A stretch of DNA of 64,000 nt, from contig CAVVPV010000007.1 of assembly GCA_963750185.1 (NCBI GenBank), positions 24,310-88,309 on the forward strand, in the 5' to 3' direction. Under the pieces are notes generated by a model that was given only the letters and a program-made list of their open reading frames with translations, was not told the origin of the DNA and did no database searches. The translations under genes and the position numbers were made by a program. Position 1 is the stretch's first letter. Each line of letters opens with the position of its first letter. Positions 3,312-57,083 of this stretch are shown here, piece after piece. This DNA comes from an uncultured Verrucomicrobiae bacterium (GTDB taxonomy: Bacteria; Verrucomicrobiota; Verrucomicrobiia; Chthoniobacterales; JAFAMB01).

Positions 3312-3566
3312 ACCACATCGGCCCGAAAACCTCCGTTAAGGACCGACAAAGTCGCGGCTCTCTGGAGGATTGCTGCGCCAGTGCATCCGATCCGAGGATC
3401 AAACTGCGCAGAATCTGGTTACTGCGAACTCCTTCGTCCCCGAAAAGGCCTTACGAGCAACACCGAAGGAGGTCAACGGGCCGAAACGGCGTGGTCAAAA
3501 CGGCAAAAGCGCAATCTCTGCCTCAAAACGCGCCGATCTTAACGGAGGTTTTCGGGCCGATGTGGT
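3312..3566. mobile_element. MITE-like element with 29-bp perfect terminal inverted repeats
   Basis: accacatcggcccgaaaacctccgttaag (3312-3340) is the exact reverse complement of 3538-3566; no transposase inside. Confidence 0.6.
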
Positions 3567-15486: not shown

Positions 15487-15591
15487 GCGTTCACTTAAGC
15501 GATTCAGAGCTCGCGGAGGCGTTAATGTTGCGCCCCCTTTGAAGAGCTGCAAAGCGGGGACGCTTCGCCTACTCACGCTTAAGTGAACGCT
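15487..15591. repeat. REP-like intergenic element
   Basis: 16-bp inverted ends agcgttcacttaagcg/cgcttaagtgaacgct; internal 27 bp (15548-15574) recurs inverted at 57019-57045. Confidence 0.65.
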
Positions 15592-25331: not shown

Positions 25332-25690
25332 CGGCGTATCGGCGTGTCGGCGCGACTCGAAGGCGACCTCGATCAATTATTGAAGCGTTTCACACCGACG
25401 TTCGGGCTTGATGAGTGGGGAGACTGCTCACAAAAGCCCCAGATTACGGTAGGCATGGACGCACCGCAGAGGAGGTAGCTATCCATGAACGTCGGCTCCT
25501 GCCCAAGTGCCTCACGTGCTGCGGCCAGTCGAAAACTCAACAGGCTGGAACGCCTCTTCTACCTTGGCTCCGTGTTTGTGGATCGAGGTCGCCTTCGAGT
25601 CGGCGCCGATACGCCGATACGCCGATACGCCGATACGCCGCACAAGGACGATCCGTTCGTACTTTCTTCCTTTTTACTTTTTACTTTTTA
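25332..25690. repeat. Short-period tandem repeats in an inverted arrangement
   Basis: cggcgtatcggcgtgtcggcg...gactcgaaggcgacctcgatc (25332-25374) inverted at 25581-25640 with tandem gccgatac octamers; tttttac heptamers at about 25671-25691. Confidence 0.7.
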
Positions 25691-27894: not shown

Positions 27895-28317
27895 GTGGCC
27901 GGCTGCAGCGACAAAGAATTAATGGCGTGGGATTTCCGATCTTTGATCGGGTGCCTGCGCGAATATCAACGGAATACAGAAGCTGTCTGCGCGCTGCTCG
28001 TTCAGGATGATGCAGCCATCCTGGCGAAGGTCGCAACTGACGCTGATTTTGATACTGATACCTTGGGGGTTTGCTCGGCGATGATATTTGCAACCTCGCG
28101 CATGCTACTCGGAGAACTTGAGACCGAAGGCGATGTTCTGGGCCGAATCACAATTGGGACCAACTACAATCTTCTCGTCATGGAGATTACGCCGAAGATC
28201 GCTCTGGCGACTCTCTACAGAAACTGGTTTTCCACGGGGCTTCTAGAACACCAGGCGCGGGCGATTATGCCGCGGATGATCGATTACCTCGTTCGCGAGG
28301 GCTCGGAGGTCTCATGA
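27895..28317 (+). CDS. Roadblock/LC7 (MglB-like) protein
   Basis: EAVCALLVQDDAAILA...DTLGVCSAMIFATSRMLLGEL...STGLL resembles MglB. Confidence 0.7.
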   Translation: MAGCSDKELMAWDFRSLIGCLREYQRNTEAVCALLVQDDAAILAKVATDADFDTDTLGVCSAMIFATSRMLLGELETEGDVLGRITIGTNYNLLVMEITPKIALATLYRNWFSTGLLEHQARAIMPRMIDYLVREGSEVS

Positions 28318-29138
28318 TCCGTTCAGCGCTTGCTTCACCTTGGTTGCCGCTGGCTTATTGGACCGCGATTGTTTGCGCAGCCCTTTGCGCGCTACCCCAA
28401 TACCTGCGTAAGGGTCATACGCAACGCTCGTCGATTGCGAAGGTCTCCGACGTAGTAACGGCCCAGGTCAATCGTGTGTCACAGGTGGTTCAATCGCTCC
28501 CTGGAGAGAATTCGATCACAAGGCATCGCGAACCCTTTCATGTTTGGGTTCCCGCGGTCCTTTGCCTCAGAGGTTTCGATCGCAAGCCGGTCGCAGCAGA
28601 GGTCGAACCAAGAAAAGTGCCGACCGTCGCCGAAGCGCTGCGGAGTCCGACACCTGCGCCGGTTACGATGCTGTCAATTCGAGCAGATTCGGCGGAGGAA
28701 CCGACTGCAAACGTGTTATCGATTGAGTGCCGAACGAGTCTCGCGGTCAGCAATATGCATGGCCGGGCAGTTTCTATTCATGGCGTCGTTACGCAGGAAG
28801 TCGTCTCTCCCGCCGGAAAGATCCTGATTATGGCCGGCAGCCGGGTTGCTGGATCCGGTTTGTTCGATCCGGAGAGCGGACGGTTAAGATCCAATAGGGT
28901 CTGGACGATCGTCTTCGAAAACACTGAAATGAAGGTCCGTGCGCTTCTACTGGATCGTCCCGGCGGCCTCCTCGGCGTCATCGGGCAAGTGAAACAGGGT
29001 GAAAGCGTGCTCGCCACCGCAAGCGCTGACTCCGAAGGTGGCAGGCTTGAATTGGTTCCCGCGAACACACCGTTTACACTCGAACTGCACGGGGAAATTC
29101 AGCTTCGAGACCTCGCGTCAAACGAATCGGAGTACTGA
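28314..29138 (+). CDS. Membrane-anchored protein with TrbI/VirB10-like C-terminal domain
   Basis: One N-terminal TM, Pro-rich linker, IECRT...IHGVVTQEV...KILIMAGSRVAG...WTIVF...LLDR..GLLGVIG...VPANTPF pattern. Confidence 0.55.
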   Translation: MIRSALASPWLPLAYWTAIVCAALCALPQYLRKGHTQRSSIAKVSDVVTAQVNRVSQVVQSLPGENSITRHREPFHVWVPAVLCLRGFDRKPVAAEVEPRKVPTVAEALRSPTPAPVTMLSIRADSAEEPTANVLSIECRTSLAVSNMHGRAVSIHGVVTQEVVSPAGKILIMAGSRVAGSGLFDPESGRLRSNRVWTIVFENTEMKVRALLLDRPGGLLGVIGQVKQGESVLATASADSEGGRLELVPANTPFTLELHGEIQLRDLASNESEY

Positions 29139-29197
29139 TGATCGCATTCTTAAATACATCCGAACATAAAGCCAAATCAAACATTGATAGGAGAATT

Positions 29198-29650
29198 ATG
29201 AAACCCAGAGTTGTAACCAAGGAGCGACAGGAGGGGATCTCGCTGATTCAAGTGCTGCTGGCAATTTTGCTTGGCGCATTGACCGTAACCTGGGCTACGA
29301 ACACGATCGTCAACGGAATGGAGAAAGGGATCGCGACGAAGACGTTGACCGTAGTCGATGCAATTCAACAGGCGAAACAACAATTCCTGGTCGACAACCC
29401 GGAAACCGATCCCAATACAGCCGCCTCTTTCGCAAATCTCCAGCCGTATCTCATGGTTATGGGCATTCAGGTGAACGACGAATCGCAATTAATGGCGGGG
29501 ACTGGCGGGCGCACAATCTCGAATTACGGGTCATTCAATACGGGGATTACTTTGAGTAAATCGATCGATCCGAATTACGTGACGCCGAGTATGAAGCCGA
29601 TTGTTGTGATGATAAACAACGGTCTTGCTTCCGGCTCCACGGTTCAATAG
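29198..29650 (+). CDS. Major type IV pilin/pseudopilin
   Basis: RBS aggaga; class III signal RQEG/ISLIQVLLAILLG; AIQQAKQQF. Confidence 0.75.
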   Translation: MKPRVVTKERQEGISLIQVLLAILLGALTVTWATNTIVNGMEKGIATKTLTVVDAIQQAKQQFLVDNPETDPNTAASFANLQPYLMVMGIQVNDESQLMAGTGGRTISNYGSFNTGITLSKSIDPNYVTPSMKPIVVMINNGLASGSTVQ

Positions 29651-38054: not shown

Positions 38055-40250
38055 ATGTCAGCGCTTACCGCGATGAGTGAACCGTGGAGTCTGGACGTGG
38101 CGGAACAGCCTTTGCAGGTTCTCCTGAATTCGGTTGTGATTGAGCCATTCAGACTGAACGGGCCTAATCACGAGAGCACTAGTGGGTTCCTCAAGTACCT
38201 CGACGAACTCGATCAGGATTCCAACCTGCTTTCAGCCTGGCAGCACCCATCGTTTTACGAATGGGCTATCCTCCGGTTCCGCAGAGATCGATCCGAATTC
38301 TTTGGGACACCCAACGAGCTGTTCGCTGCTCTCTTTCGGTCTAATAGGGAGGGACCGCATGTAGCGGTCGATATCAGCAACTATACGCCGGTATCCGGCG
38401 AAAGGATCAATATGCCGGCCGTCCGCATCCCGCTGGTTCCGATTGCGTACCGGTTCTCACATGGCCAGAAGACTGCGGACGAGGTGACGGTGGCGAGCTG
38501 GATACCTGGGCTGGCACACGCGATCAGAGGAGTTCATTGGTCGGTTTTGAATCGATTTTTTGGAGCCAGGAAAGTTCATTGCGTCTGGTGCGATCCCGAA
38601 GCGATCCGTGCGTTCCTGGCTCGGAATGCGGATCGCATCGTGATCACACCGAGGTTGCCGGAGAACGACGTCGTGCCTCGAAAAGAGTATCTCAACGGTC
38701 AGGGGAGACCCTGGATCGATCTGAACGATTTCGCGTTTCCGGAGGAGCTGTTGAAGCGGTTGACTGTGACGCTGTTCAAAGCGATCCCGGTCTATTGGTC
38801 GGAGTGGATGGCGACGCTGGCGGTAAGTGAGAAGCTTTCGCCAGATGATCACAACTATCTTTCCCAACTTTATCAGCATCGTGTCACGTTCGGGGAAGTC
38901 GACGCAGAGCCGCGCCATCTGGAAAAATGGCTGGCACACGCCGCCAATAGCAAAATCAATATTCCCGGACTCGCCGATCGGCTCAAGCCAGTCAGCGACA
39001 GCTCGAGTATCCATGTCAAAAAAGTCGAACAGGTCGATCTCGAGAAACTCAACCGGCAGATCGCCCAGGGCAAAATCTCCACGGAGGATGTTGTTCATTT
39101 GATCCTCACTCGCGGAATTGATCTCGACGTTTCCGATATTAAACTCCGATCCGAAGACCTTAGCGGGCTGTATGTTCACTACAAAACCAACGGTTACTGG
39201 ATGAAACCGCTCCGTCTTCAGTGGGAAGCGGCAAACCTGATTATCTCCGTCCTGAAAGACAAAGCCGGTTTGCGCACTGAACGGATCGACATTCCGCAGG
39301 ATGGTCAGTTCCAGATCGGTCACAATCAACGAACCTATTTGTTTCGGATCCACACCTCCTATCATGTGACCGGTGAACAGGTAATCCTGCGCATGAAGCG
39401 TGACGCGACGTCGATCCGATCGCTTGCGTCGCTCGGACTGCCGGAGAGATACGTTGAAAAGATTCATCAAATTCTGCATGGCCGAACCGGGCTGATTGTT
39501 TTTTCCGGACCGACCGGGTGCGGCAAATCAACAACGATCTACAGCATCCTCAACGAGTTCGATCCGCTTCAGCACAACATCCAGACGGCAGAGTCGCCGA
39601 TCGAAGTTGTGATCCCGCACGTGAACCAGGTGGAGATCAGCGATTTTGGTCGCAACACCTTTTTGAACTGGGTTCGGGGCATTGTTCGGGAGGCTCCTGA
39701 TATTCTGATGATGGGTGAGATCCGCGATTTTGAGACGGCAGACGCTTTGTTGCGCGTGGTGAACACTGGACATCGGGTCATTACGACGCTTCATGCCAAT
39801 TCGGCTGCAATGGTTCCGATCCGTTTTTTGCAGCTTGGCGTGCAACCCTACCTCCTTGCATCAACGCTTCGGATGGCCCTTTCGCAGTGTCTTGTCAAAA
39901 TGGTCTGCACGCATTGTGATGAGGAGGTGCCGATCCCGAGTGCACAGAAACTTCGAAAAATGAGAATCGATGCTGACTGGTTGGGCGGCGCTGAATCATT
40001 CAAAGTCGGGCGGGGATGCAGTCACTGCAACGGGACCGGCTTTGAGGGCCGGAAGGCGCTGTACGAAGCGTTGATCGTAGACGAAGAAATCGCGCACGAG
40101 CTCCACGGCCAGCCAACGCCTGAGCGGTTGCGTCGATTGATGCTCGAGCGAGGAGAGGCGACTTTACTGGAGAAAGCGGTTCGAGAAGCTGCGCGCGGGA
40201 CGATCAGCCTGGAGGAAGCAACACAACTGGCGCTCGAACTGGCGGAGTAA
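38055..40250 (+). CDS. GspE/PilB assembly ATPase
   Basis: SDIKL, PQDGQF, Walker A GPTGCGKST, ILMMGEIRD, TGHRVITTLH, CxxC...CxxC zinc motif. Confidence 0.95.
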   Translation: MSALTAMSEPWSLDVAEQPLQVLLNSVVIEPFRLNGPNHESTSGFLKYLDELDQDSNLLSAWQHPSFYEWAILRFRRDRSEFFGTPNELFAALFRSNREGPHVAVDISNYTPVSGERINMPAVRIPLVPIAYRFSHGQKTADEVTVASWIPGLAHAIRGVHWSVLNRFFGARKVHCVWCDPEAIRAFLARNADRIVITPRLPENDVVPRKEYLNGQGRPWIDLNDFAFPEELLKRLTVTLFKAIPVYWSEWMATLAVSEKLSPDDHNYLSQLYQHRVTFGEVDAEPRHLEKWLAHAANSKINIPGLADRLKPVSDSSSIHVKKVEQVDLEKLNRQIAQGKISTEDVVHLILTRGIDLDVSDIKLRSEDLSGLYVHYKTNGYWMKPLRLQWEAANLIISVLKDKAGLRTERIDIPQDGQFQIGHNQRTYLFRIHTSYHVTGEQVILRMKRDATSIRSLASLGLPERYVEKIHQILHGRTGLIVFSGPTGCGKSTTIYSILNEFDPLQHNIQTAESPIEVVIPHVNQVEISDFGRNTFLNWVRGIVREAPDILMMGEIRDFETADALLRVVNTGHRVITTLHANSAAMVPIRFLQLGVQPYLLASTLRMALSQCLVKMVCTHCDEEVPIPSAQKLRKMRIDADWLGGAESFKVGRGCSHCNGTGFEGRKALYEALIVDEEIAHELHGQPTPERLRRLMLERGEATLLEKAVREAARGTISLEEATQLALELAE

Positions 40251-40252
40251 TG
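39882..40252 (+). repeat. Copy 1 of a 371-bp direct repeat (3' end of the ATPase gene)
   Basis: Matches 43007-43377 with 5 mismatches by eye. Confidence 0.95.
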
Positions 40253-40774
40253 GGTGACCAAGGGCGCTGCAACTGTTTGAGTCTGCTCGCGGCGATGATA
40301 GTCCTCTAAAAGAAAACATTGAAACAGACAATCTTTGTTTCCAGCTTCCGGTTAGCCGGCGCGATGGCGTCCTAACTGCCGAGCTAGCTTTCCGCCACAT
40401 TGACCAGTCTCGGCAGTATAGTAATCGGATCGTCCAAGGGCCCATCAAAATACTGAACAGCACCTTGAGTCCCGGCGTGTTGAAAAGATGTGCTGTTGAT
40501 GTTTACTTTTTTTACCACCACCGGCGTTGCACGCTTAGGTTCCGGGATCTCGGTTCTCTTAGAGTGCGACGGTCTCGGCATCAATTCGGGGGAATGGCTG
40601 GATCGCCCTGGCTCGCGTCAAAAACACGTCGGGGCGCAAAACTCATAAGCTTGCATTTTTGCGGAAATGCATCAGGTGGTTGCTCTTTTTGGCAACTTCC
40701 TCTATGGGTTTGGATGCTTTTGACGATATGTGCCCCTCACGAATCGTGAACGACTCACGCACGGCGGAACGCTC

Positions 40775-41587
40775 ATGAGTAGCCCGATAAAATATCAGAA
40801 TCCACCTGTGGCGGAAGTCGCATTCTCGGCCTCATTTCAAACGGCAAAAACGATGTCCGCAGCGTTTATAGGCATTTTTTGGTTGCAGATACGGGACGAC
40901 TTCCCGAAACTAACCGAGAATTCGCCTCTACCGATTATAACCGAGTCTCCAAAGGACTCCGTTGCGGCTGAGACGCTGCAGATGCAGGTCCAAATGCTAA
41001 ATTTGCCTGATTTGCGGAGAAGTATCTTAACGAGTCATGATGGAAGGCGCATGATTCAGATTCAGCAAAACAAGTTCATATTAAATTGGAAGCGGGGCCA
41101 AAGTAGCACATACTCTGATTTTGAAACCGCACTAGCCGCATTCGATTCAATGCTCGAACGATTGAGTAAGGCCCTAGTGGCGGAAGAATTCGGCGAAATC
41201 ATTTATAACCAGTATGAGTTACAGTATGTTAATTTAATTGGACCGGACAATGGTCTTGCCCTTGTTGGCGAGGGAGGTGTACTCGTGGATCATACTAGGC
41301 AATCTTCGGGTGAGCGCTTTTTGCCGGAACCAACCGCGTTCAATTGGACGTCGTCGTATCAACTCCCGAATGGAATGGGCCGCTTACATATAGGTGCTCA
41401 AGCCGTCCTTGTGCCACCGGAGAACCAACGCCACGTTCGTCTTGACGTACTGGCGAGGGGGTTCCCCCATAATGGTGAAAGCGTTAGCAAAGAACAATGG
41501 TTTCAACTTGCTCACGAGTGGATTGTGAAAGGATTCACGGATTCTACGTCCTCGGTTCTCCACGCTCAAGCCTGGAAGCGACTATGA
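40775..41587 (+). CDS. TIGR04255-family protein
   Basis: YQNPPVAEVAFSASF, MIQIQQNKFILNW, ELQYVNLI, WFQLAHEWIVKGF. Confidence 0.8.
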   Translation: MSSPIKYQNPPVAEVAFSASFQTAKTMSAAFIGIFWLQIRDDFPKLTENSPLPIITESPKDSVAAETLQMQVQMLNLPDLRRSILTSHDGRRMIQIQQNKFILNWKRGQSSTYSDFETALAAFDSMLERLSKALVAEEFGEIIYNQYELQYVNLIGPDNGLALVGEGGVLVDHTRQSSGERFLPEPTAFNWTSSYQLPNGMGRLHIGAQAVLVPPENQRHVRLDVLARGFPHNGESVSKEQWFQLAHEWIVKGFTDSTSSVLHAQAWKRL

Positions 41588-42450
41588 AGTTGATTAGGAA
41601 AGACATTTCCTTGAGTGGTAGTGATTGGCAAGATGCTGACACTCGCCACGAGGTAGAGCACTTCTACGGTGGGAGTTGCAAAATTAGCACAATGGTAAAC
41701 CTGCGGGTGTCTAGTCCGCCGATTAGTGATGCATTTGGGGAGCCACTACGTTTCGAGACGGGGCCTCCTCCCGCAATCAAAACGGCGATTTCCGCCGATG
41801 CTTCGATTACTCTCACGCCAATTACTAGTCTCAATGTTTCCGGTTGGCAACCCCCTGGGTCGCGGGTATATCAAAGCGAGTCACTGCCGTTCGCTAAACG
41901 GGCTGAGCTATTTGAAGCGCTAAGCAAAATAAACGCTTATTTTTCAGACATCGAACGTAGTGCGGATATTTCTTTAGTTTTATGGCTTGAACCCATGGAA
42001 CAGCGCCGCTTGTTTCAAGTGAAATATACACCGCTGCCAGTTGTAGGCGAGACTTGGACGATCGGACTGGATAGCCAAACTATGGTGGTATCCAACCCGG
42101 AAGCCCGTTTGAAATGGGAGGTACTTGACAGGGACCCATTTCTGTTGTCCGAAACTGTCAAGGAGGCCCAAACGAAAGCGCAATCAGGCGAGTTCGCAGC
42201 CGCGTATAAGTTGATCTTTCGTTGTTTGGACCGGGCCATGAAGGCAGGGGCTCTTGACGATATTGATTCTGTGCTTTCAAACATCAGCGCCGAAGATATG
42301 ACCTTGGAAATATTGATCGCTCTATTAACAGCGACGTTACCGGTCAGAACGCGGCTACCCGCTCGCAAGGCGTTTTTTCTAGCGACTGAGAAAGTGGCCA
42401 AAGATCGCAATCGGTGGAGTAAATCTTTGCTTTCCGGTCTAGAGGGTTGA
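41584..42450 (+). CDS. Hypothetical protein, translationally coupled
   Basis: ATGA overlap with the TIGR04255 gene; helical C-domain LIALLTATLP...LLSGLE. Confidence 0.7.
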   Translation: MKLIRKDISLSGSDWQDADTRHEVEHFYGGSCKISTMVNLRVSSPPISDAFGEPLRFETGPPPAIKTAISADASITLTPITSLNVSGWQPPGSRVYQSESLPFAKRAELFEALSKINAYFSDIERSADISLVLWLEPMEQRRLFQVKYTPLPVVGETWTIGLDSQTMVVSNPEARLKWEVLDRDPFLLSETVKEAQTKAQSGEFAAAYKLIFRCLDRAMKAGALDDIDSVLSNISAEDMTLEILIALLTATLPVRTRLPARKAFFLATEKVAKDRNRWSKSLLSGLEG

Positions 42451-42803
42451 TGCCAATGTGCGCGTTGCTGAGACGTGTGCCGGATTCAAAGTGCGCGGAA
42501 ATTGAGGTAGCCGCAGTTACAATTAAAACGATTAACGATGGCCAAAGGCACATCGGCATAGCGTTTCGCGAGGACGAAGAATGTTGCAAACTGTTGCATT
42601 TGGCATGGCACTACAAGATGCGCCTGGATAACGTAGATGCGACTTTCTATTGGGTTGAGCACAAGATAGATCAACTTAGGCTGTACGGCGTTTTGGCATT
42701 TTGCGACCTTATCATTCAAGCGAATCCCGCGGGCATACCGTATGCCTTCGATTCTCCCAATGATTGCTTCGAAATTTTGCAGCAGTTGACAAGAGGCGAA
42801 TGA
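42450..42803 (+). CDS. Hypothetical protein, possibly a C-terminally truncated permuted papain-like enzyme
   Basis: TGATG coupling; QRHIGI...LHLAWH...IPYAF, stop soon after. Confidence 0.5.
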   Translation: MPMCALLRRVPDSKCAEIEVAAVTIKTINDGQRHIGIAFREDEECCKLLHLAWHYKMRLDNVDATFYWVEHKIDQLRLYGVLAFCDLIIQANPAGIPYAFDSPNDCFEILQQLTRGE

Positions 42804-43006
42804 GTCAAGATAGAAATCGATCGTTGGCAATCTTTATCCAGGGTGTCCGCGTTCGCCTGTCCTGACTCGTTGCCGCGGAAACTGCGGAGGCTTCTGAAAG
42901 GTCACTCTAAAGTTGCCACTAATGGTCGAGTTAAGGGCTTCAAATGCAGCCACTTTTTGGAACACAAAACAGATCCACGGATCTGCGGGAATGCGGGACC
43001 AATGGG

Positions 43007-43377
43007 TCGCAGCGCCTTATCAAAATGGTGTGCACGCATTGTGATGAGGAGGTGCCGATCCCGAGTGCACAGAAACTTCGAAAAATGAGAATCGATGCTG
43101 ACTGGTTGGGCGGCGCTGAATCATTCAAAGTCGGGCGGGGATGCAGTCACTGCAACGGGACCGGCTTTGAGGGCCGGAAGGCGCTGTACGAAGCGTTGAT
43201 CGTAGACGAAGAAATCGCGCACGAGCTCCACGGCCAGCCAACGCCTGAGCGGTTGCGTCGATTGATGCTCGAGCGAGGAGAGGCGACTTTACTGGAGAAA
43301 GCGGTTCGAGAAGCTGCGCGCGGGACGATCAGCCTGGAGGAAGCAACACAACTGGCGCTCGAACTGGCAGAGTAATG
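43007..43377 (+). pseudogene. Orphan duplicate of the ATPase C-terminal ~122 codons (copy 2 of the direct repeat)
   Basis: Near-identical to 39882-40252; lacks Walker motifs and a credible start. Confidence 0.93.
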
Positions 43378-43440
43378 GCCACAATTCTTTTTTCGGTCAG
43401 TCAGGAAAACACAACGGTCGTTCGCGCTTGAAGGATTAAA

Positions 43441-44295
43441 ATGTTAATCGAAAGTTTGAAGAAACTCTTGGACCTGTGGGTCCAGCAGGGCACACAAGTC
43501 GAGCGGTACTATGGAGGCAGCGACAAAGAGCTGAAAGAAATGCTCGAGATCGCCGGATATCAAGGTCAGGCCGCCTGTGCATCTGTTTGTTATTGGTGGA
43601 TTCGGCGCCATTTGACTTATGGCATTATATCCTCCCCTGAAAAGCCCGCATTCGCGAAGTCGAATTTTGATATCGTCGAGAAATGGATAGTGGCGAAAAA
43701 GCAAACGGCCTATAGCAAAGCTCACCAATCCGTAGACACGCCCTATGAATCCATGATCGATGAGAAGGATGCATTGATCCACTCCTTGGTTTCGAAGGAG
43801 AACTTTAAACCTTGGGGCAGCATTGCTAACTCAGACACTAACATAAGTGCAGTCGTTAAAGCGCTGAAGAATTGCGTTGAGAGCTCTTACAAAAGCGAAG
43901 CTGAGATGCGGAACATTTTGACTTCGGACTTGGACCAGGGACATCCGTGGAAGAACAAATCAATATTCGAAAGCGATTTCAACCAGGCGGCTGATTGTTA
44001 TTTCATACTCTCGGTGAAGACGACGGTTTTCGGTCACTCAATGGCTATCCGCTACGAGGCATGCAATGGGGTCATCCATTTCGTCGATCCTAACCTTGGG
44101 CACTTTAAATTCATTGGGTGGACAGCCTTGGAGCAGAACCTCCAGCACTATTGGATTTGCATTTGGATGCACGAGGTCGACAAGGTACGCTCCTTTCCTC
44201 CCAAATTTCGCTTTTTGCAACACCGCGTGTATCAGTTTCGCCGGGCTCCAAAATATAAAGACATCGCGGATTTTTTCGTCTGGCGCGACATTTAG
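43441..44295 (+). CDS. YopT/AvrPphB-like (C58-like) papain-fold cysteine protease
   Basis: RBS aagga; ACASVCYWWI (Cys), GHSMAI (His), HFVDPNLGHFKF (Asp); no signal peptide. Confidence 0.75.
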   Translation: MLIESLKKLLDLWVQQGTQVERYYGGSDKELKEMLEIAGYQGQAACASVCYWWIRRHLTYGIISSPEKPAFAKSNFDIVEKWIVAKKQTAYSKAHQSVDTPYESMIDEKDALIHSLVSKENFKPWGSIANSDTNISAVVKALKNCVESSYKSEAEMRNILTSDLDQGHPWKNKSIFESDFNQAADCYFILSVKTTVFGHSMAIRYEACNGVIHFVDPNLGHFKFIGWTALEQNLQHYWICIWMHEVDKVRSFPPKFRFLQHRVYQFRRAPKYKDIADFFVWRDI

Positions 44296-44511
44296 CTGAG
44301 CTCGAAGTGTTTTCAAAAGGGTTTCTGTACAGAATGACACCTCGAAAAACTCTTGAGTAACGAACCAATCCTACAGAACATAACGGCAGCCTGTACGCAT
44401 TTTCGAAAAGAGATTAACATTTCTCAGCGGCGCGTGAGAAAATCTCACTGGGCGCATCCGAAAACGCGTCCAACTGGCAAGGCCAAAAATACAAAGGATC
44501 TCTTTGACCAT

Positions 44512-46888
44512 ATGTGCCGCGTAATTCGAATCTTTCTGTTCATCACATTTTGGAGCGTTTTAATCGGTAACAGGGCCGCAGCCCAGCAGACCTCCGCAAC
44601 GACGCCGAAACCGAGCCCGACAATTCCCGTACCCACGCCGATTCCGCTATCCGACATTGCCGGGCAAGCGCAGTCCGCCAGTGAGTCTCTCCGCGGTGTC
44701 GAGACCACCTTGTCAACCAATCAGATAACCGCGTCTGCTGAAATACGTCTCCCTGAGCTGACAAACGAGGTCGACCTGCGAACGACGGAGATGGACAGAC
44801 TTCTGGCGGAAAATCTGCCTTTGGAGTTTCTCCATCGCATGGAGGCCGTTGTGCAGTCGCTTCATGATGAACTTTCGAAGTGGAATCATAATCTGGCGGA
44901 GGACGCCAAAACCCTGGACGGCCACATTGCTGATCTGGACAGGCTGAGCAAGATCTGGAAAGCAACTCTCCAGTTGCCGGAATTATCCAAGACTGCGCCG
45001 GAGATACCAAATCGGGTGCAGAGTCTGATTGATCGCATCGGTCGCGCGCAGCAAGCGGTGGAATCGCTTCGAGCGAGGGATTTGACCCTGCAGGGCCAGG
45101 ACCTGGAGGCGACAGCTCGACTGGAAACAGCCGCTTCAGCGCTCGAACGGGCGGAAGCCACCGCTGTAAAAGAGCTTTTCGTTCAAGACAGCCCGCCTAT
45201 CTGGAACCTTGACACCAAAACCTCGAGAGAGAAAGGCAGCCCATCGCTTGCTTGGCGGGCAAGCGCAAGCGTGTCCGTCAACTATATCAAACGCCAGCCA
45301 ACGGTTTTCCTGCTTCACGCGATCATTATTCTCCTTCTGTTCCTTGTCATGCAGTGGTTGCGGCGCCGAGTCCACAAATGGACCGAGAATGAGCCGAGTT
45401 TGCTGCGTGCGGCCCCAGTCTTTGAAGTGCCGGTCTCAACGGCAATAGCGCTCTCTTTTCTGGTCACCGCACCGCTCTATTCGCTGGCACCTTTTTTTTT
45501 GCGGGCGATCCTTGGGGGAGCACTCCTTATCCCCACCGCGCTGATTCTGCGCCGGTTAATTGACCGGACACTGTTTCCAATTCTCAACGCGCTGCTCGTC
45601 TTTTACTTTGTCGATCAACTGCGAGTGATCGCGACAGCCCTCCCGCTGTCGGGCCGGTTCCTCTTCGGCGCAGAGATGTTAGGTGCAACACTGTTTCTGA
45701 TCTGGCTGATTCGGAGCAAGCATTCATCAGACGGTCGGTGCCAACACAACGAAGCGTTTCGCGCGAGCAATCCAGGTCGCCACACGCATCGGCCTGATCG
45801 TCTTTCCAGTAGCGCTCCTGGCGAACGTTTTTGGGTACGTTAACTTCGCGAATCTCCTGGGAAGCGGTGTTCTCAGAAGCGCTTACGTCGCAGCGGCTCT
45901 TTACGCCGCGCTGCGCATCGTCGAAGGTCTGATCATCATATCGCTGGAGGCGCGCCCGCTTGGCTTGATGCGCGTCGTTCGCCTCAACCGGCCCATGCTT
46001 CAGCGGCGTGTTTGCGGCGTTGCTGAATTCTTGGCCTTCCTGTACTGGCTAAGTTTAACGTTGAACTTTTTGGGGCTGCGAACGCCGTTGATCACGAGTA
46101 CTGAAGCGGCGCTCCAGGCGAACCTGTCGATCGGCGCCCTGAGCATTTCTTTGGGACAGGTATTGGTGTTCATACTCGCGGTTTGGGGTTCTTTCCTGGT
46201 CTCGAGGTTCCTCCGTTTTCTTCTCGAAGGAGACGTCTATCACTATTGGAAGCTCGAGCGAGGCATTCCGCAGGCGATATCAACGATGGTCCACTACGCT
46301 GTCCTGCTCATCGGATTCTTCGTCGCCCTCGGCGCGCTCGGCGTCGATCTTACGAAGGTTACGATTCTGGCAGGAGCATTTACTGTTGGGGTCGGGTTTG
46401 GATTACAGACTGTGATCAATAATTTTGTTTGCGGATTGATTTTGCTTTTTGAGCGCCCGATTAAAGTCGGTGACGTTGTCCAGATAGATGCCGATATCGG
46501 AGAAGTCCGGCGCATCGGAATCCGGGCATGCGTCATTCGCACGCCGGACGGTTCCGATGTCATTGTGCCAAACGGGACGATCATCTCCAATAAGGTGACA
46601 AACTGGACATTATCTGATCGATACCGTGCGGTTGAAATCCCGGTCAACGTGGCTCGCGGCGTGGCTCCGCACCGCGTGATCGAGGTATTGAAAAGTGTCG
46701 CGGCCAATCATCCAAGTTTAGCGAAAGAACCGGCAGCGCAAGCCTATGTTCTCAGCTTTGCCCCTGGCGCTGTGAGCTTTCAACTTCGAGCCTGGACGGA
46801 CCGGTACGAGGACTGGGTTCAAGTGCGGAGTGATCTTTCTGTCGCGGTTGATGAGGCTTTGACCCGCGAGAATATCGCGATTGCGTGA
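44512..46888 (+). CDS. Large MscS/MscK-like mechanosensitive channel, one frameshift near 45730
   Basis: Signal peptide, coiled coil and TMs in ORF 44353; GVGFGLQTVINNFVCGLILLFERPIKVGD, VIVPN in ORF 45965. Confidence 0.88.
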
Positions 46889-49196: not shown

Positions 49197-49530
49197 ATCG
49201 TCCTCTGACTGCGTCTAATAGCGACGGGTTGCGGTTATGAAGAAGACAAGGCTTAGTCGAGGACACCCGCAAAGATCGCAATGGGTTCGTGGACGGAAAA
49301 AGCAGCCTTAGCACTACGTAGTCATTCGTCCGGAAACGACTGTAGCATCCGCGTCCCGCGTGTATTGTACCCTTGGCGCGCTGTGAATTGTCGGTTACGG
49401 CCGATGATTTATCACCAGTCTGCAGTTTGGACATTTTCGAGAGCGTCGTCCCGGAGGGACGAACGACAGTAACCCGGCGATTTATTGCTGGGTTAGCTAT
49501 AGTTCGGACGGCGTCCCAGGGGGACGCTTG
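49197..49530. repeat. Composite intergenic repeat, left copy
   Basis: 49197-49280 recurs directly at 51401-51484; about 49446-49527 recurs inverted at about 51586-51667. Confidence 0.8.
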
Positions 49531-49615
49531 AATACCGCGCCCGAAATCGGATCTACCTACCCGTGACGCCGAAACAGTAACAATCTAGCCATCGAGCCTC
49601 TACACACGCAATGGG

Positions 49616-51382
49616 CAGTCGATCCTGCCTGGACAGAGCGCCTCGTTTACGGTCTCCGCCAGCGGCAACCCAACCAGCTACCAATGGCAACGGATGCCAC
49701 TCGGAAGTTCGACCTGGATCAATCTGAGCGACACCGGCGCCTACAGCGGATCGGCCACACGCAGTTTGACCGTGAACCCTGCGACCTCGGCGATGAGCGG
49801 CGACCAGTTTCAATGCGTCGTTCAATTTGCCTCCGGTGCGGTGAACAGCGCGCCCAATGCCGTGTTCACCGTCGAGACGCCGCTGACGATTGCTACGCTT
49901 GCCGGACAGGCCGGTATCACTGGTAACACTGCTTCCTCGGATGTCGCGTATCCCAGCGGCATTGCTCTCGATAGCTCCGGCAATCTTTACATCGCCGATT
50001 ACCAGAATAACGCGATTCGCGAAGTGACGCCTGCGGGTGTGGTGACAACACCCTATGCTGGGTTTGACACGCCCAATGGCATTGCCGCGGATGGATCGAA
50101 CAATCTCTACGTGGCTGATACAGGTGCCAACCTTATTCAGAAAATAACCGCGTCGACGGGGGCGGTTAGTACATATGCGTTCAACACGCCAGAGGGCATT
50201 GCCGTAGACGGCTTGGGAAATATCTATGTCGCCGATACCGGCAATAATATTATCCGTAAGATCACGTCAGGTGGAACTGTTACAACCCTTGCTGGCAAAG
50301 CGGGAACGGCTGGTTATCTGGATGCAACCGGTACATCGGCGGAATTTAACAACCCGACCTCCGTCGCAGTGGACAGCTCGGGGAATGTTTACGTGGCTGA
50401 CTTCAACAATATAGTCATTCGGAAAATAACACCGGGCGGAACGGTCACCACTTTCGCGGGCCAGGCGGGTATTGCGGGCTATATGGATGGGCCTGCGGCT
50501 CAGGCCCTATTCAATTCACCAAATGGCGTGACTGTCGATGGCTCCGGCAATGTCTACGTCACCGATAGTCTCATCCCTGGCACCACGGTCATCGTTGCGG
50601 GCAATAATCTTTTCCGAAAAATCACGCCCGCCGGCGCGGTGAGTACCCTGGCCGGTCAGGCAGGAGTCTCGGGCAGCTCGAACGGCTTGGGATCTGCCGC
50701 GCAGTTTTACAGCGTTCAGGCCTCCGCGATTAGCAGCTGGGGAGAATTTTATCTGGCGGATACGTACAATCAGCTGATTCGGGCGGGTGGCATCCTCCCG
50801 GTTATCGTCGCGCCTCCTCTAGGCCAGGTGATCACGGTCGGAGGACCGGTTACCTTTTCTGCGACCGCTTCCGGTACGGGTCCATTCACGTATCAGTGGC
50901 TGAAGAATAACGCGGCTATTTCCGGTGCGACCGGTTCCACTTACTCGATTGCCAGTGTCGCAGCCGGTGACGCCGGCGACTATGCGGTAACGGTCACCAA
51001 CTCGTTTGGCAATGCCACCTCGGGCGCCGCCACGCTGATCCCGGTCACTTCGCAGCCTGTGGCCGAGAACGTCAACATCGGCCAGACGGTCACCTTCTCC
51101 ATCACTGTGGTGGGACCCGGCCCCTTAACCTATCAATGGCTATTTAACGGTGTGGCGATCAGCGGCGCCACCGGTTCTTCCTATACGATCCAGAACGCGT
51201 CTTCCGCTAATGCGGGCAACTATTCGGTCGTGGTCGGCGACGCGAATGGAATTGTCACGACAAACCCGGTCAGTCTGAGCTTCATGGCATCGGATACCCC
51301 GACAATGCCGCAGTGGGGACTGATCGTGATGGCTCTCCTGCTTATTTGGGCTGCGACGCGGCAAAGAGCACGGCAAAGCTAG
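49616..51382 (+). pseudogene. 5'-truncated paralogue: Ig-like + NHL repeats + 2 Ig-like + IPTL-CTERM-type sorting signal
   Basis: Homologous to 53791-55584 from cagtcgatc onward; frame intact but no signal peptide or upstream start; ends TPTMPQWGLIVMALLLIWAATRQR. Confidence 0.75.
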
Positions 51383-51400
51383 CGTAGGAATCGTAGCCAG

Positions 51401-51670
51401 ATCGTCCCCTGACTGCGTCTAATAGCGACGGGTTGCGGTTCTGAAGAAGACAAGGCTTGGTGGAGCACACCCGCAAAGATCGCATGTAGCATACGCGTCC
51501 CGCGTGTATTGCTCCTGCGTCTGCCTCAAACGCCAAACAATACGATTTTATCTTCGGGTTAATAGGTCCTGTGCCCAGCTTTCAACCGTACCTCCAGGAC
51601 GCGGAGCAAACTCAATCTAACCCGGCAATAAATCGCCGGGCTAATCTCGTTCGTCCCTCGGGGACGTATC
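51401..51670. repeat. Composite intergenic repeat, right copy
   Basis: Counterpart of 49197-49530. Confidence 0.8.
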
Positions 51671-52037
51671 TTCAACAGGGTGTTTCACCAGAATAGAACG
51701 TTACATCCGACGCTCCGGAGTTCCCTCTCCAGCTTCGTCGACACGCGTCGCTAGCAGGCTTCGAATTGCTTTGTTAGTGCAACGCAATGGGCTAAAGAAT
51801 AATAGGGTTTCAGCGAAGGTTACGTTTTTTTTACAAAGCGATTGGTTACCCGAATTGACTGCACGGACCCTGATTTGCTACTAACGAGCCTGAATCTAGG
51901 CGAGAGCTCGTCCGAAATTTGTTTGCTCTGCGCATCTATTAAAAATATATCGCGCACTGCAGAGCATCTAACGGGATTGCCCACGTAAAACGTTTCCGTC
52001 GAAAGCGAACAGCAAATGCTCGAAATTGAAATTTCCG

Positions 52038-55000
52038 ATGTCCGGTCAACAATCCTTCGTTATCGTCCGCCTCTGGGTCGCGGCTATGCTGCTGGGGGCA
52101 CTTCTTTTGCCGGTTCAAGCGGCCACGCCCACGACAGTCGTTCTGTCGGACAGCATCAAACCGGTTGAGTTAGCGCCGCAGGCCGGACCGGTCAATCCGA
52201 ACAGGCCATACATCTCGCGCAGCGGGTTGACGGCCGATGAGAGCGCTGCTTCGATGGATTTCGAGTTCGCTTTGAAGATGCATAATCTTTCCGAATTGCA
52301 GGCGCGCTTGGCCAGGGGCGAGCGGATTTCCCCCCAGGAAATGGCGGCCCGCTACGAACCGACGGCGGCCGATTACGAGGCTGTAGCCGCCTGGATCCGC
52401 AGCCAGGGATTGACGATCACGCGTCAGGACGGAACTCACATCGCCATTTTCGTCCGCGGAAACATCAGCCAGATCGAGCAGGCGCTGCTGGTGACTTTCG
52501 CCCGAGTGACGTTCGGGGGCAAGGAATACACCTCAGCCATCAATGCGCCGAGCGTGCCGGCAACTCTATCGCCAATCCTGCTGGGCATTAACGGCCTGCA
52601 ACCTCATATCCGGCCCCATACGCATCTGATCGTGAAGCCCAGTTCATTGACCGGGACGAACCCTCCGTATCTCCCCAGCCAGATTGCTCAGGCGGACAAC
52701 GCCACCAGTTTGTACAGCTCCAATATTACCGGCGAGGGAGAGTCGATTGCCATTGTGATCGACACCTTTCCTTTCACCTCCGACCTCGTCTCGTTCTGGA
52801 AGACCTACGGTGTCAGCCAGTCCCTGAACAATATCCAGTTCATCCAGGTCGTCCCGGGTACGCTGCCTTCGCCTTCGAGTCCAACTGAGGGCGAGACAAC
52901 GCTCGACACGGAATGGAGCAGTTCGATCGCACCGGGTGCGCGCGTTCGGGTCTATGCAACGACAAAACTCGACTTCACCAAATTCGACGAAGCCTACCAG
53001 CAGGTTTACACCGACGCGATCAATCATCCCGAGTATGGCCTGCACCAGATGTCGATGAGTTATGGAGCGGGAGAAAAAACCAGCGAAACGCAGAGCCAGG
53101 TGAATACCGATGCGAATTACTTTATAATGCTGGCCAGCGCGGGCGTGACGATGTTCGCCTCCTCTGGCGACGGCGGTTCTACTCCGGGAACGACAGGAGG
53201 CGATGGATTCGAGCGGTCCGCTGCAGGTGGAATATCCTGCCAGCGATGCCAACGTAACCGGTGTGGGCGGAACGTCTTTGACGCTGAATTCCAACGGCAG
53301 CGAAAGCAGCGAGGTGGCCTGGTCGAACAGCGGCGGAGGAATTAGCGTGTATGTCCCGCGTCCCTCGTGGCAGACCGGCACAGGCGTGCCCGCCGGCACG
53401 ATGCGAGCGGTGCCCGACGTGGCGTGTCCGGCCGATCCGAAAAATGGCGCGGTTCTATATTGGAACGGCGCGCAGACAACAATCGGAGGCACAAGCTGGG
53501 CCTGCCCGACCTGGGCCGGTTATTGCGCGCTCATCAACCAGGCTCGCTCGAATGCCGGTCTGTCGCAGATTGGCTTGTTGGGACCCCAAATCTATCCGCT
53601 GATCGGCTCGACAAATTTTCGTGACATCACCTCCGGGAGCAACAGCGTCGGCGCCAACAGCGGCGGCAACTATAGCGCGGGTATAGGTTACGATCCGGTG
53701 ACCGGTATCGGCGTGCCTCTGATGCAGACTCTGACTCAAACGTTGGTGGGTTCGTCTCAGCTTCTGGGCGTGCAGATTCAGCCGGTCTTCCAGTCGATCG
53801 TGCCTGGACAGAGTGCCTCGTACACGGTCTCGGCCAGCGGCAATCCAACCAGCTACCAATGGCAACGGATGCCGCTCGGAAGTTCGACCTGGAGCAATCT
53901 AAGCGACACCGGCGCCTACAGCGGATCGGCCACGCCCACTTTGACTGTTAACCCTGCGACGTCGGCGATGAGCGGTGACCGGTTTCAATGCGTCGTCCAT
54001 TTTGCCTCCAGCACGGTGACCAGCGCGCCCAATGCGGTGCTCACCGTCGAGACGCCCCTGACGATTGCTACGCTGGCGGGACAGGCCGGTATCATCGGAT
54101 CCACCGCTTCGTCGGACTTTGATTTTCCCACCGGCATCGCTCTCGATACTTCGGGCAATCTCTATATCGCCGATTTCCTGAATAACGCGATTCGCAAAGT
54201 GACGCCCGCCGGAGTCGTGACGACACCCTACGCTGGGTTTGACCTGCCCTATGGCATCGCCGCGGATGGATCAAACAATCTCTACGTGGCTGATACAGGC
54301 GCCAACCTTATTCAAAAAATCACCGCGTCGACGGGGACAGTCAGTACATTAGCGGCTTCGACTTCGTTCAGCGAACCTCTGGGCATCGCTGTCGACAGCC
54401 TGGGAAATATCTATGTTGCCGATACCGGTAATAATATCATCCGTAAGATCACCTCAGGCGGAACGGTGACAACCCTCGCTGGAAATGGAACGGCTGGTTA
54501 TCTCGATGGAACCGGTACATCAGCGGAGTTTGACAACCCGAGCTCCGTAGCGGTGGATAGCTTCGGGAATGTGTATGTGGCTGATCACAACAATGAAGTC
54601 ATTCGGGAAATAACTCCGAGCGGAACGGTCACCACTTTGGCGGGCCAGGCAGGTGTCGCGGGCTATATGGATGGTCCTGCGGCTCAAGCCCTGTTCAATT
54701 CGCCAATTGGCGTGACAGTCGATGGTTCCGGCAATGTCTATGTTGCCGACAGTCTTAACCCTGAGCTCACGGGCACGTTCTTGAACCCCTTGAGCCCGGC
54801 AGGCAATGATCTTATCCGAAAAATTACGCCCGCGGGCGCGGTCAGTACTCTGGCCGGCCAGGCGGGAGTCGCGGGCAGCTCGAACGGCTTGGGATCTGCC
54901 GCGCAGTTTTACAGCGTTCGGGCCTCCGCGATCAACAGTTGGGGAGAATTCTATTTTGCGGATCAGTTCAATCAGCTGATTCGGGAGGGCGGCATCCTCC

Positions 55001-55584
55001 CGGCTATCGTCGCGCCTCCTCTAGGCCAGGTGATCACGGTCGGAGGACCGGTTACCTTTTCCGCGACCGCTTCCGGTACGGGTCCATTCGCCTATCAGTG
55101 GCTGAAAAATAACGCGGCCATTTCCGGTGCAACCGGTTCCACTTACTCTATTGCCAGCGTCGCGGCCGGTGACGCCGGCGACTATACGGTAACGGTCACC
55201 AACTCGTTTGGCAATGCCACCTCGGGCGCCGCCACGCTGATCCCGGTCACTTCGCAGCCTGTGGCCGAGAACGTCAACATCGGCCAGACGGTCACCTTCT
55301 CCATCACTGTGGTGGGACCCGGCCCCTTAACCTATCAATGGCTATTTAACGGTGTGGCGATCAGCGGCGCCACCGGTTCTTCCTATACGATCCAGAACGC
55401 GTCTTCCGCTAATGCGGGCAACTATTCGGTCGTGGTCGGCGACGCGAATGGAATTGTCACGACAAACCCGGTCAGTCTGAGCTTCATGGCATCGGATACC
55501 CCGACAATGCCGCAGTGGGGACTGATCGTGATGGCTCTCCTGCTTATTTGGGCTGCGACGCGTCAAAGAGCACGGCCGGCGTGA
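52038..55584 (+). CDS. Surface S53 peptidase-Ig-NHL-Ig protein with IPTL-CTERM-type signal; one frameshift near 53205
   Basis: Signal peptide, pro-domain, ETTLD, SSGDGG, then in the second frame GGTSWACP, GYDPVTGIG; NHL repeats (GIAVDSLGNIYVAD); PTMPQWG + TM + Arg tail. Confidence 0.88.
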
Positions 55585-55590
55585 CAAACT

Positions 55591-56196
55591 GTGAGCCGCC
55601 AAACAAGGAAAAACCGTCAGAAGCGCCAGGAGCATTCGTCTAATGCTGCATGGCAATCCTGGTATGCCAGCAAAAGCCCGGTGCTTCGCTTCGTGTCGAA
55701 GTTCGGTATCCTCCTTGCCTTGTTCTACGGGCTGTCGGCCACTCCCTGGTTCGATCGAATGCTCTATTCCTATCTGGAAGCCAATGCCTGGCTTTCCAAT
55801 ACCATCTTGAACAGCTTCGGCCAGCACACGCATGTTTCTGAAGTAACGATTGAGTCGCCTCAGTTTGCCATCGTTCTTCGCCGGGGCTGCGATGCCGTTG
55901 AGGCGACCTGGCTCTTTTGTGCGGCCGTCCTCTCCTTCCGTGCTCCCTTCATGCGTAAGCTTCCTGGTTTAATGGCCGGAATCGTTACGTTGCAGGCACT
56001 CAATCTGGTCCGTATCGTTACCCTTTACTGGATTGGTCTTCATGTGCCCGACTTTTTCGATTCGGCCCATACGGAACTCTGGCCGGCCGCCTTTATTATC
56101 GTGGCGATCGTGCTTTTCATTTGCTGGATGAAAGGGGGAGACTGGGGAAACGTATCGGCGGGTCGGCGTGTGGGCGTATCGGCGTGTAGAGAATAA
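55591..56196 (+). CDS. xrtH: Exosortase H-like protein
   Basis: GCDAVEA (Cys), LNLVRIVTLYWIG (Arg), AHTELWP (His); adjacent to IPTL-CTERM-type substrates. Confidence 0.8.
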   Translation: MSRQTRKNRQKRQEHSSNAAWQSWYASKSPVLRFVSKFGILLALFYGLSATPWFDRMLYSYLEANAWLSNTILNSFGQHTHVSEVTIESPQFAIVLRRGCDAVEATWLFCAAVLSFRAPFMRKLPGLMAGIVTLQALNLVRIVTLYWIGLHVPDFFDSAHTELWPAAFIIVAIVLFICWMKGGDWGNVSAGRRVGVSACRE

Positions 56197-56302
56197 GACT
56201 GCTTTTCGACATAACTATATTGACCAGGAGGTCTCCACGAAGGTGACGACTCTTTTCAAACGCCCACACGCCGACCCGCCGACCCGCCGTTACGTTTCCC
56301 CA
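56143..56302. repeat. Inverted octamer-repeat element at the xrtH/next-gene junction
   Basis: tggggaaacgtatcggcgggtcggcgtgtgggcgt ... acgcccacacgccgacccgccgacccgccgttacgtttcccca. Confidence 0.8.
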
Positions 56303-56938: not shown

Positions 56939-57018
56939 TAGTCACCATAGCAAGAAACCAAACATAGATCCGTTTGCCTGGTTCTCGCCCGATGCCTAGC
57001 ATTCTACTGCTTAACCGG

Positions 57019-57083
57019 GAGTAGGCGAAGCGTCCCCGCTTTGCACCTCTTCACAGGCGCGCAAACCGAGACGGTTCGCCTAC
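57019..57083. repeat. GTAG-type REP element
   Basis: gtaggcgaagcgtccccgctttgc ... gcaaaccgagacggttcgcctac; halves also at 15548-15574 and 19447-19469. Confidence 0.7.

Follow-up and report, generated by a model that had tools for sequence, protein, structure and literature searches.

How does the 3' end of an intact gene come to stand, almost unchanged, a second time behind a block of other genes? The question is raised by a 64,000-nucleotide stretch of DNA (the window, to whose numbering all positions refer) from the genome of an uncultured Verrucomicrobiae bacterium (GCA_963750185.1; 4.0 Mb, 87% complete; feature on contig C7). There, the tail of a GspE/PilB-type secretion or pilus ATPase gene, the last gene of an operon with secretin, GspF-type and prepilin-like or pseudopilin genes, is found again downstream of three genes referred to here as the cargo. 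Our analyses favor the view, with a probability of about 0.62, that the duplication is the scar of a one-off, integrase-free capture of DNA by homologous recombination.

The two copies form ungapped direct repeats of 372 bp each (39882-40253 and 43007-43378), with a start-to-start offset of 3125 and 98.7% identity, which is far beyond chance, and the tail has no further occurrence in the source genome as assembled. Five positions differ between the copies, four of them in the first 24 bp of the repeat (39888, 39890, 39894, and 39905) and one close to its other end (40244). A first-pass annotation of this DNA, made from the sequence alone, had described the duplication as 371 bp long with the same offset and five mismatches, four near the start, and apart from the one base in length its description holds; also correct are its observations that the full gene encodes SQCLVK where the orphan tail encodes SQRLIK and that no integrase lies between the copies, as no integrase-family match was found in the open reading frames (ORFs) there. 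Because the ATPase scores below the equivalog cut-offs of both GspE (TIGR02533; 256 bits versus 630) and PilB (253 versus 676), the name gspE given to it is a family-level label, and on these scores the gene can be called GspE/PilB-type only. The 143-aa ORF that runs into the orphan tail is probably not a functional gene.

The arrangement before the event can be read from related loci. Eleven metagenome loci carry a relative of the tail, and the nine close ones were examined. Two of these, L072 (95% nucleotide identity) and L073 (93%), have the ATPase gene, a 361-bp spacer, and an MscS-family gene, which is a single 792-aa ORF in both, with no cargo, C58-like gene, or repeat. Over about 40 bp, their flank matches the sequence that follows copy 2 and not the one that follows copy 1, which marks the flank of copy 2 as ancestral. 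In L080 (98%), a locus that begins inside the repeat, the tail is followed by the C58-like gene, and more distant relatives have other genes downstream of the ATPase. In the window, the C58-like ORF, in which Cys-His-Asp motifs can be recognized by eye, stands in place of a spacer of about 320 bp in L072/L073 and is a second accessory occupant of the slot behind the ATPase. The comparison of downstream genes that the first-pass annotation had proposed thus shows a variable slot, and its suggestion that new genes were placed behind the operon and displaced a protease gene agrees with the position of the cargo between the ATPase and the previous downstream gene. The 37-bp motif behind the ATPase stop codon (43376-43412), which contains a small inverted repeat and is kept in L072 and L073, recurs with 84% identity upstream of a Lipase_3 gene elsewhere in the genome (C15:83441-83477, L101) and might be a regulatory site common to secreted enzymes.

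The same annotation had regarded gspE as an integration site, a view that the relatives do not sustain. Among 43 family genomes, 32 had a match to the tail and the source genome alone had two; a second tail was found in none of the nine close metagenome loci and none of 10 related loci, in a sample with few close strains. Short tail matches in two genomes (G019 and G022) proved to be contig ends and were rejected as second tails. The tyrosine recombinase family PF00589 has eight matches in the genome, all on contigs other than C7, and PF07508 has no match in this 87%-complete genome. With one case in 43 family genomes and neither a tyrosine recombinase on C7 nor a PF07508 match in the genome, the duplication is a solitary occurrence and not a recurrent target, even though what lies behind the ATPase varies.

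The 107 bp immediately before the orphan tail are the decayed left end of an IS21-family insertion sequence (IS), stopping 2 bp short of the position of the istA start codon; when the insert was compared with the 43 family genomes, 13 of the 14 non-self matches fell on these last 107 bases. The stub is 76-83% identical to whole-length IS ends in five genomes (G014, G005, G008, G053, and G041), in which the alignment passes from an IS21-type left end into istA, and one complete element (L098:817-3553) has inverted ends and encodes IstA and IstB above the NCBIfam cut-offs. Further copies were seen in eight public soil runs, compared as short-read contigs, one of which may be the source sample: live IS copies match 42931-43006 and then enter the istA start, with loose ends at 43006, and this divergence therefore fixes the joint at 43006|43007. 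The repeated IS motifs, of which 12 of 13 other loci have one or two copies, are missing altogether from the stub in the window, and near the insert neither a right end nor another IS end was found. The joint faces the interior of the IS, where the IS21 transposase is not known to cut, and so would not have been made by transposase. Neither the decayed left end nor an internal deletion in cargo gene 3 (see below) was part of the first-pass annotation. The source genome carries other IS21-like remnants, among them an isolated IS21 end without transposase (C11:39380-39450).

The distribution of the mismatches adds a second layer to this history. SQCLVK is encoded in all 12 close relatives, and QRL occurs elsewhere only in homologues of 40-50% identity, so that the arginine and isoleucine of the orphan are private changes attributable to decay. 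On the other hand, the silent tip bases C39890 and G39905 are each present in seven of the 12 relatives and also in the dominant strain of X13, and because of these matches the tip of the orphan is taken to be an older or sister allele. The proposal of a sister-allele tail made in the first-pass annotation therefore stands on the two silent bases but loses the QRL marker on which it had drawn. In the interior of the repeat, the window departs from L072 at 24 sites and from L073 at 22, yet the two copies agree throughout; an identical run of 338 with five randomly placed mismatches has a probability of about 2e-5, computed after the pattern had been seen. Because a plain single crossover would retain all donor-host differences, a lone event of this kind would not account for the 338-bp identity, and gap repair or later recombination would be needed. 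The single-crossover capture suggested earlier thus fits the anatomy, with the ancestral flank behind copy 2 and a laboratory precedent in E. coli conjugation (PMC3240628), but cannot by itself explain the identical core. General collapse of repeats by the assembler is unlikely because 71 of the 74 repeat pairs of at least 300 bp and at least 96% identity in the genome keep their differences, an identical run of at least 90% of the length being present in two of the 71; this count is our own tally, and its pairs are not independent.

Taken together, a direct repeat of the homology brackets the insert and there is one novel illegitimate joint, as in a single-crossover (Campbell-type) integration. 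The history that we infer would begin in a related strain in which the cargo and an IS21 copy or stub already lay behind the ATPase gene. A fragment running from position 39882 of the ATPase through the cargo into the IS21 end would then have been closed by the illegitimate joint, either as a circle or through unequal sister exchange. One RecA-type crossover in the shared tail with a chromosome carrying the C58-like gene downstream of the ATPase would have left the ATPase intact and the C58-like gene displaced 3.1 kb downstream. Later recombination or gap repair would have made the interiors identical, whereas the tips, lying beside non-homologous DNA, would have kept old alleles and decayed. 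The source genome has a ComEC-family gene. Several points weigh against this history. No Ku gene that could explain end joining was found (in a genome 87% complete), the donor allele (ATPase, cargo, and IS21 without the orphan) was not seen, and the sequence following an undeleted gene 3 in run X8 is not visible. Among the records listed from the eight runs, no read or contig covers both tail copies, and short-read contigs drop rare variants and cannot confirm identical interiors. No clean microhomology, such as the 3-10 bp expected at the joint in homology-facilitated illegitimate recombination, was found at the exact joint; the istA start matches the ATPase at 17 of 20 positions 13 bp inside the joint, which ranks first of 438 windows for one of seven IS variants and close to first for another, but not highly for the remaining five. 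Finally, circle, unequal exchange, and stepwise routes yield the same end structure. As a clean case from nature of genes gained with no integrase involved, by a route known from the laboratory, the rearrangement is illustrative rather than surprising; the old alleles frozen at the repeat tips are part of its value as an illustration. The coordinates of the features are collected in Table 1.

Table 1. Features of the ATPase-cargo locus and its downstream flank (window positions)
Feature	Position	Strand	Remarks
GspE/PilB-type secretion or pilus ATPase, 742 aa	38022..40250	+	PF00437, E 1.6e-74
Repeat copy 1: final 122 ATPase codons with stop codon and 3 further bases	39882..40253	+	
Core of the repeat, 338 bp	39906..40243	+	Identical between copies
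Non-coding leader of cargo	40254..40774		
Cargo gene 1, TIGR04255 family (function unknown)	40775..41587	+	64.7 bits, cut-off 30
Cargo gene 2, 288 aa	41584..42450	+	No family
Cargo gene 3, predicted permuted NlpC/P60 (YiiX-like) cysteine hydrolase family	42447..42803	+	Fold predicted for family member P0005
Linker of unknown origin	42804..42899		No informative match in genome or family
Decayed left end of IS21-family element	42900..43006	+	76-83% to IS ends; terminal bases and both repeated motifs damaged
ORF of 143 aa: IS non-coding DNA fused in frame to ATPase tail	42944..43375	+	Probably no functional gene
Repeat copy 2: orphan ATPase tail	43007..43378	+	Without Walker A/B
Tip of copy 2	43007-43030	+	Two sister-type silent bases, two private missense changes
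Ancestral 3' flank of ATPase gene	43376..43414	+	Homologous to L072/L073 flank
C58/YopT-like cysteine peptidase ORF, accessory slot occupant	43441..44295	+	Weak hit, E 0.0023, below cut-off
MscS-family gene, conserved right-hand anchor of the slot	44353..46888	+	Apparent split by 1-bp insertion near 45729 (versus L072/L073)

The first-pass annotation had named an assembly artefact of strain mixing as the outcome that would undo its proposal. With a junction counted as bridged when at least 31 bases lie on each side, the IS-to-tail junction is bridged with zero differences in at least four of the eight runs (X2, X3, X6, and X7; two studies) and the tail-to-cargo junction in at least three (X1, X7, and X8; three studies). 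As each of the new junctions was recovered from short-read contigs in at least two studies, strain mixing is an unlikely source of the repeat, and in X2 three contigs (39500-39935, 42449-43060, and 43031-43632) meet exactly at the start of the identical core, which supports a real second tail. It is therefore highly improbable that two alleles (ATPase-cargo and ATPase-C58), or a chromosome and a free circle, were merely joined through the repeat by the assembler, although none of the listed records spans both copies and a circle with an empty chromosome would give the same short-read graph. The placement of both copies on a single molecule comes from the assembly, apparently a long-read one (N50 of 141 kb in 38 contigs), and a 3.1-kb circle lacking a replication gene would not be expected to persist. 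An unlikely view is that of a live on/off cassette, the cargo being repeatedly excised and re-captured via the 338-bp core so that filled and empty alleles and circles coexist. The mismatches confined to the edges imply recombination in the core; moreover, in X1, X2, and X3 the depth of the cargo contigs is about half that of the flanks (6.5 versus 12), a weak hint given that depth is not a share of cells, and one X4 contig joins 39905 to 43031 while an X3 contig runs from the ATPase into the C58 flank. However, X4, X6, and X7 have no clear depth drop over the cargo, the X3 and X4 joins can be graph artefacts, and the broken gene 3 speaks against the cargo being selected as a whole. As the ancestral state is likewise empty, the presence of an empty allele would not demonstrate excision. 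The depth ratios and the two joins were not accepted as proof of excision, the depth being low and the repeat exceeding the assembly word size. RecA-dependent loss of the cargo through the repeat is possible. An X7 contig combines sister-population bases at 39716-39860 with bases of the window type at 39890-39932, which hints that ATPase alleles may be mosaic.

The remaining alternatives assign the event to a mobile element. An origin in which an active IS21 produced a cointegrate or an adjacent duplication, and then shrank by deletion to the 107 bp of its left end, is improbable, even though the IS21 end lies exactly at the joint, other IS21-like remnants exist in the genome, and loss of ISs via microhomologies has been described for copy-out elements, with IS21 listed among the circle formers (bioRxiv 10.1101/2023.06.07.543989). 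A composite transposon would likewise need more than a decayed left end, as the cargo is flanked neither by istA and istB nor by a right end or a second copy; in addition, the joint faces inward from the IS end, neither repeated motif is intact, and istA and istB are absent from 80 further cargo loci (L119-L198, the best 80 among 107 GTDB loci with the gene-3 family, to which all cargo-locus counts refer). Very unlikely, in turn, is a degraded site-specific element, whose integrase would have inserted at a core in gspE and supplied a replacement 3' end before being deleted with most of the element. A duplication restoring the 3' end of the gene is the typical footprint of such elements, and here the target gene is indeed restored, with the displaced fragment at the other end of a foreign-looking, decaying cargo. 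Yet the DNA beside the orphan is the non-coding end of IS21 and not an attachment (att) arm, contig C7 has no integrase, no second case exists in the 43 family genomes, 10 relative loci, and 9 metagenome loci, and gspE is upstream in none of the 80 cargo loci, one of which has an ATPase hit downstream. We also regard as quite unlikely the combined proposal that, in a wild soil population, the ATPase tail serves repeatedly as a landing pad that needs no integrase, with recombination keeping the copies identical and a module flipping in and out behind the secretion or pilus operon, and that this module (TIGR04255, its partner, and the permuted NlpC/P60 peptidase) is an undescribed anti-phage or toxin-antitoxin system spread across many phyla. 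A one-off capture by homologous recombination is the most likely reading.

The more valuable lead is the cargo, which includes two unannotated genes in tight linkage, one of them for a predicted cysteine hydrolase; the pair is scattered over many phyla and in some loci lies beside defense genes. The GC content of the cargo is 48-50%, versus 54% for gspE and gspD, and a promoter and terminator scan of the non-coding leader gave nothing above shuffles. In the window, gene 3 has an in-frame loss of 103 internal residues at about 42772, seen against a 98% identical protein (P0004) and removing the conserved GLTC motif; truncation by a junction was rejected because the loss is internal. X8 carries the tail-to-cargo junction and an undeleted gene 3, with a loose end at 42772 that agrees with the missing part. 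At E<=0.001, gene 3 has 207 relatives; among the 150 listed the median length is 221 aa, and 120 of 121 full-length members have the motif G-L/M/F/V-T/S-C, which is absent from the window copy. The predicted peptidase thus appears to be broken here, lacking the motif of the catalytic cysteine. For the family as a whole, the model of P0005 (predicted local distance difference test score of 94.6) matches YiiX (Foldseek probability 0.97, E 0.015; Z 9.5, root-mean-square deviation 3.7, 150 aligned residues) and 3kw0 (Z 8.2), which predicts a permuted papain-like NlpC/P60 fold. The YiiX/YaeF family is described as having this fold (PDB 2if6 and 3kw0; PMC3142127). The gene-3 family resembles it in predicted fold and in the order of His before Cys, but differs in its 13-15% identity, lack of a Pfam hit, and fixed upstream partner gene, and the window copy differs further in having no cysteine motif.

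Loci of the gene-3 family are spread over Planctomycetota, Myxococcota, Pseudomonadota, Verrucomicrobiota, and other phyla. A search of 400 other genomes of the source phylum gave no convincing match (four weak partial hits, E about 5e-4). A gene-2 relative, with a helical C-terminal domain (window pair 41584-42803), lies directly upstream of the gene-3 family member in 79 of the 80 loci, the last one having no upstream DNA. Because a TIGR04255-like gene opens only 17 of the 80 loci (14 of the 71 with enough upstream DNA), the fixed unit is the gene 2-gene 3 pair and not the triad; in many Planctomycetota loci the first gene belongs to an unassigned family of about 230 aa. None of the three cargo ORFs matches a PADLOC model (2023 library). 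Among 106 nearest neighbors of the cargo from 57 loci there are 11 PADLOC hits at E<=1e-25, of which seven are specific (DpdA, DrmMI, DrmC, DruE, ZacB, and type I and type IIG restriction) and four are generic kinases or ATPase, versus two generic hits for 106 ORFs from eight related ATPase loci, a small control made of relatives. These figures hint at an association with defense genes and make the pair a candidate new defense or toxin-antitoxin module; that the module is an undescribed anti-phage or toxin-antitoxin system across many phyla is a tentative idea with the odds somewhat against it. Word-based searches recovered no relatives of gene 3 or gene 1, viral contigs searched with P0005 yielded none, and an atlas search with gene 2 gave only hits below 0.9. 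In a literature search covering few subscription papers, no paper on TIGR04255 or on the gene pair and no link of permuted papain-like or YiiX proteins to anti-phage activity were found.

Other repeats in the window and genome were also considered. None of 14 further direct repeats of 100-1250 bp examined in the source genome is clearly a gene tail around cargo. A 728-bp repeat of 98% identity in two heavy-metal ATPase-like ORFs (C14:181100-181826 and 185950-186676) brackets two genes but has evenly spread mismatches, unlike the gspE repeat, whereas a duplicated sigma-factor-like gene (C27:24934-26185 and 27977-29227; 1252 bp, 99%) also has its mismatches toward the ends, with identical runs of 436 and 495 bp. 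At 49197-55584, the window contains two paralogous genes for subtilase/NHL-repeat/immunoglobulin-like surface proteins (named from motifs by eye), about 4.2 kb apart, with blocks of 85-91% identity and an 84-bp repeat nearby. Small inverted-repeat elements (3312-3566, 15536-15583, 57010-57057, 25604-25640, and 56143-56302), some ending in TTAAG/CTTAA, and repeats of the CGCCGATA type resemble repetitive extragenic palindromes or miniature inverted-repeat transposable elements.

The locus can be set beside several known systems. Integrase-driven elements that target icd or tRNA genes restore the 3' end of the target gene, and the present case is similar in that the target gene is intact and a displaced 3' fragment lies on the far side, but it has no integrase, no att arm, and no recurrence in relatives. 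A search by title and abstract start, covering few subscription papers, found no report of gspE as an integration target, and none of the gene-conversion papers among the matches listed deals with this case. The arrays of the Vibrio type VI secretion system and of Rhs, together with homology-facilitated illegitimate recombination (HFIR), share with this locus the entry of genes behind a conserved secretion gene, the displacement of an earlier occupant, and an orphan left behind (PMC5361080, PMC3240628). Unlike these arrays, however, there is here no orphan array and no swapped C terminus, the orphan tail being the gene's own sequence; nor does it resemble an orphan C-terminal cassette (Rhs, contact-dependent inhibition, or TpsS), as there is one orphan with the same protein tail except for two tip residues. 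HFIR also deletes recipient DNA, whereas here the recipient tail was duplicated and the ancestral flank kept (PMC5361080, PMC3240628). Tandem duplications arising during transformation of S. pneumoniae are alike in involving unequal recombination, an IS remnant at the boundary, and no need for a transposase, but there the repeat is the IS and the duplications span about 100-900 kb, whereas here the repeat is a gene tail and there is a single IS end (PMC3784515). In E. coli conjugation, 56 of 60 clones had target duplications (109-950 bp in the 14 sequenced), which were ascribed to trimming, recircularization, and a single crossover and were about ten times more common than HFIR (Amarir-Bouhram et al. 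2011, PMC3240628). The likeness extends to one-sided homology, an illegitimate joint (there mostly without microhomology), the absence of an integrase, and a partial duplication of the target gene, of 109-950 bp there and 372 bp here. The E. coli case, on the other hand, concerned laboratory conjugation with a selected plasmid, whereas the present one comes from a natural soil population, has its joint in an IS21 end, and appears to have been homogenized afterwards (PMC3240628).

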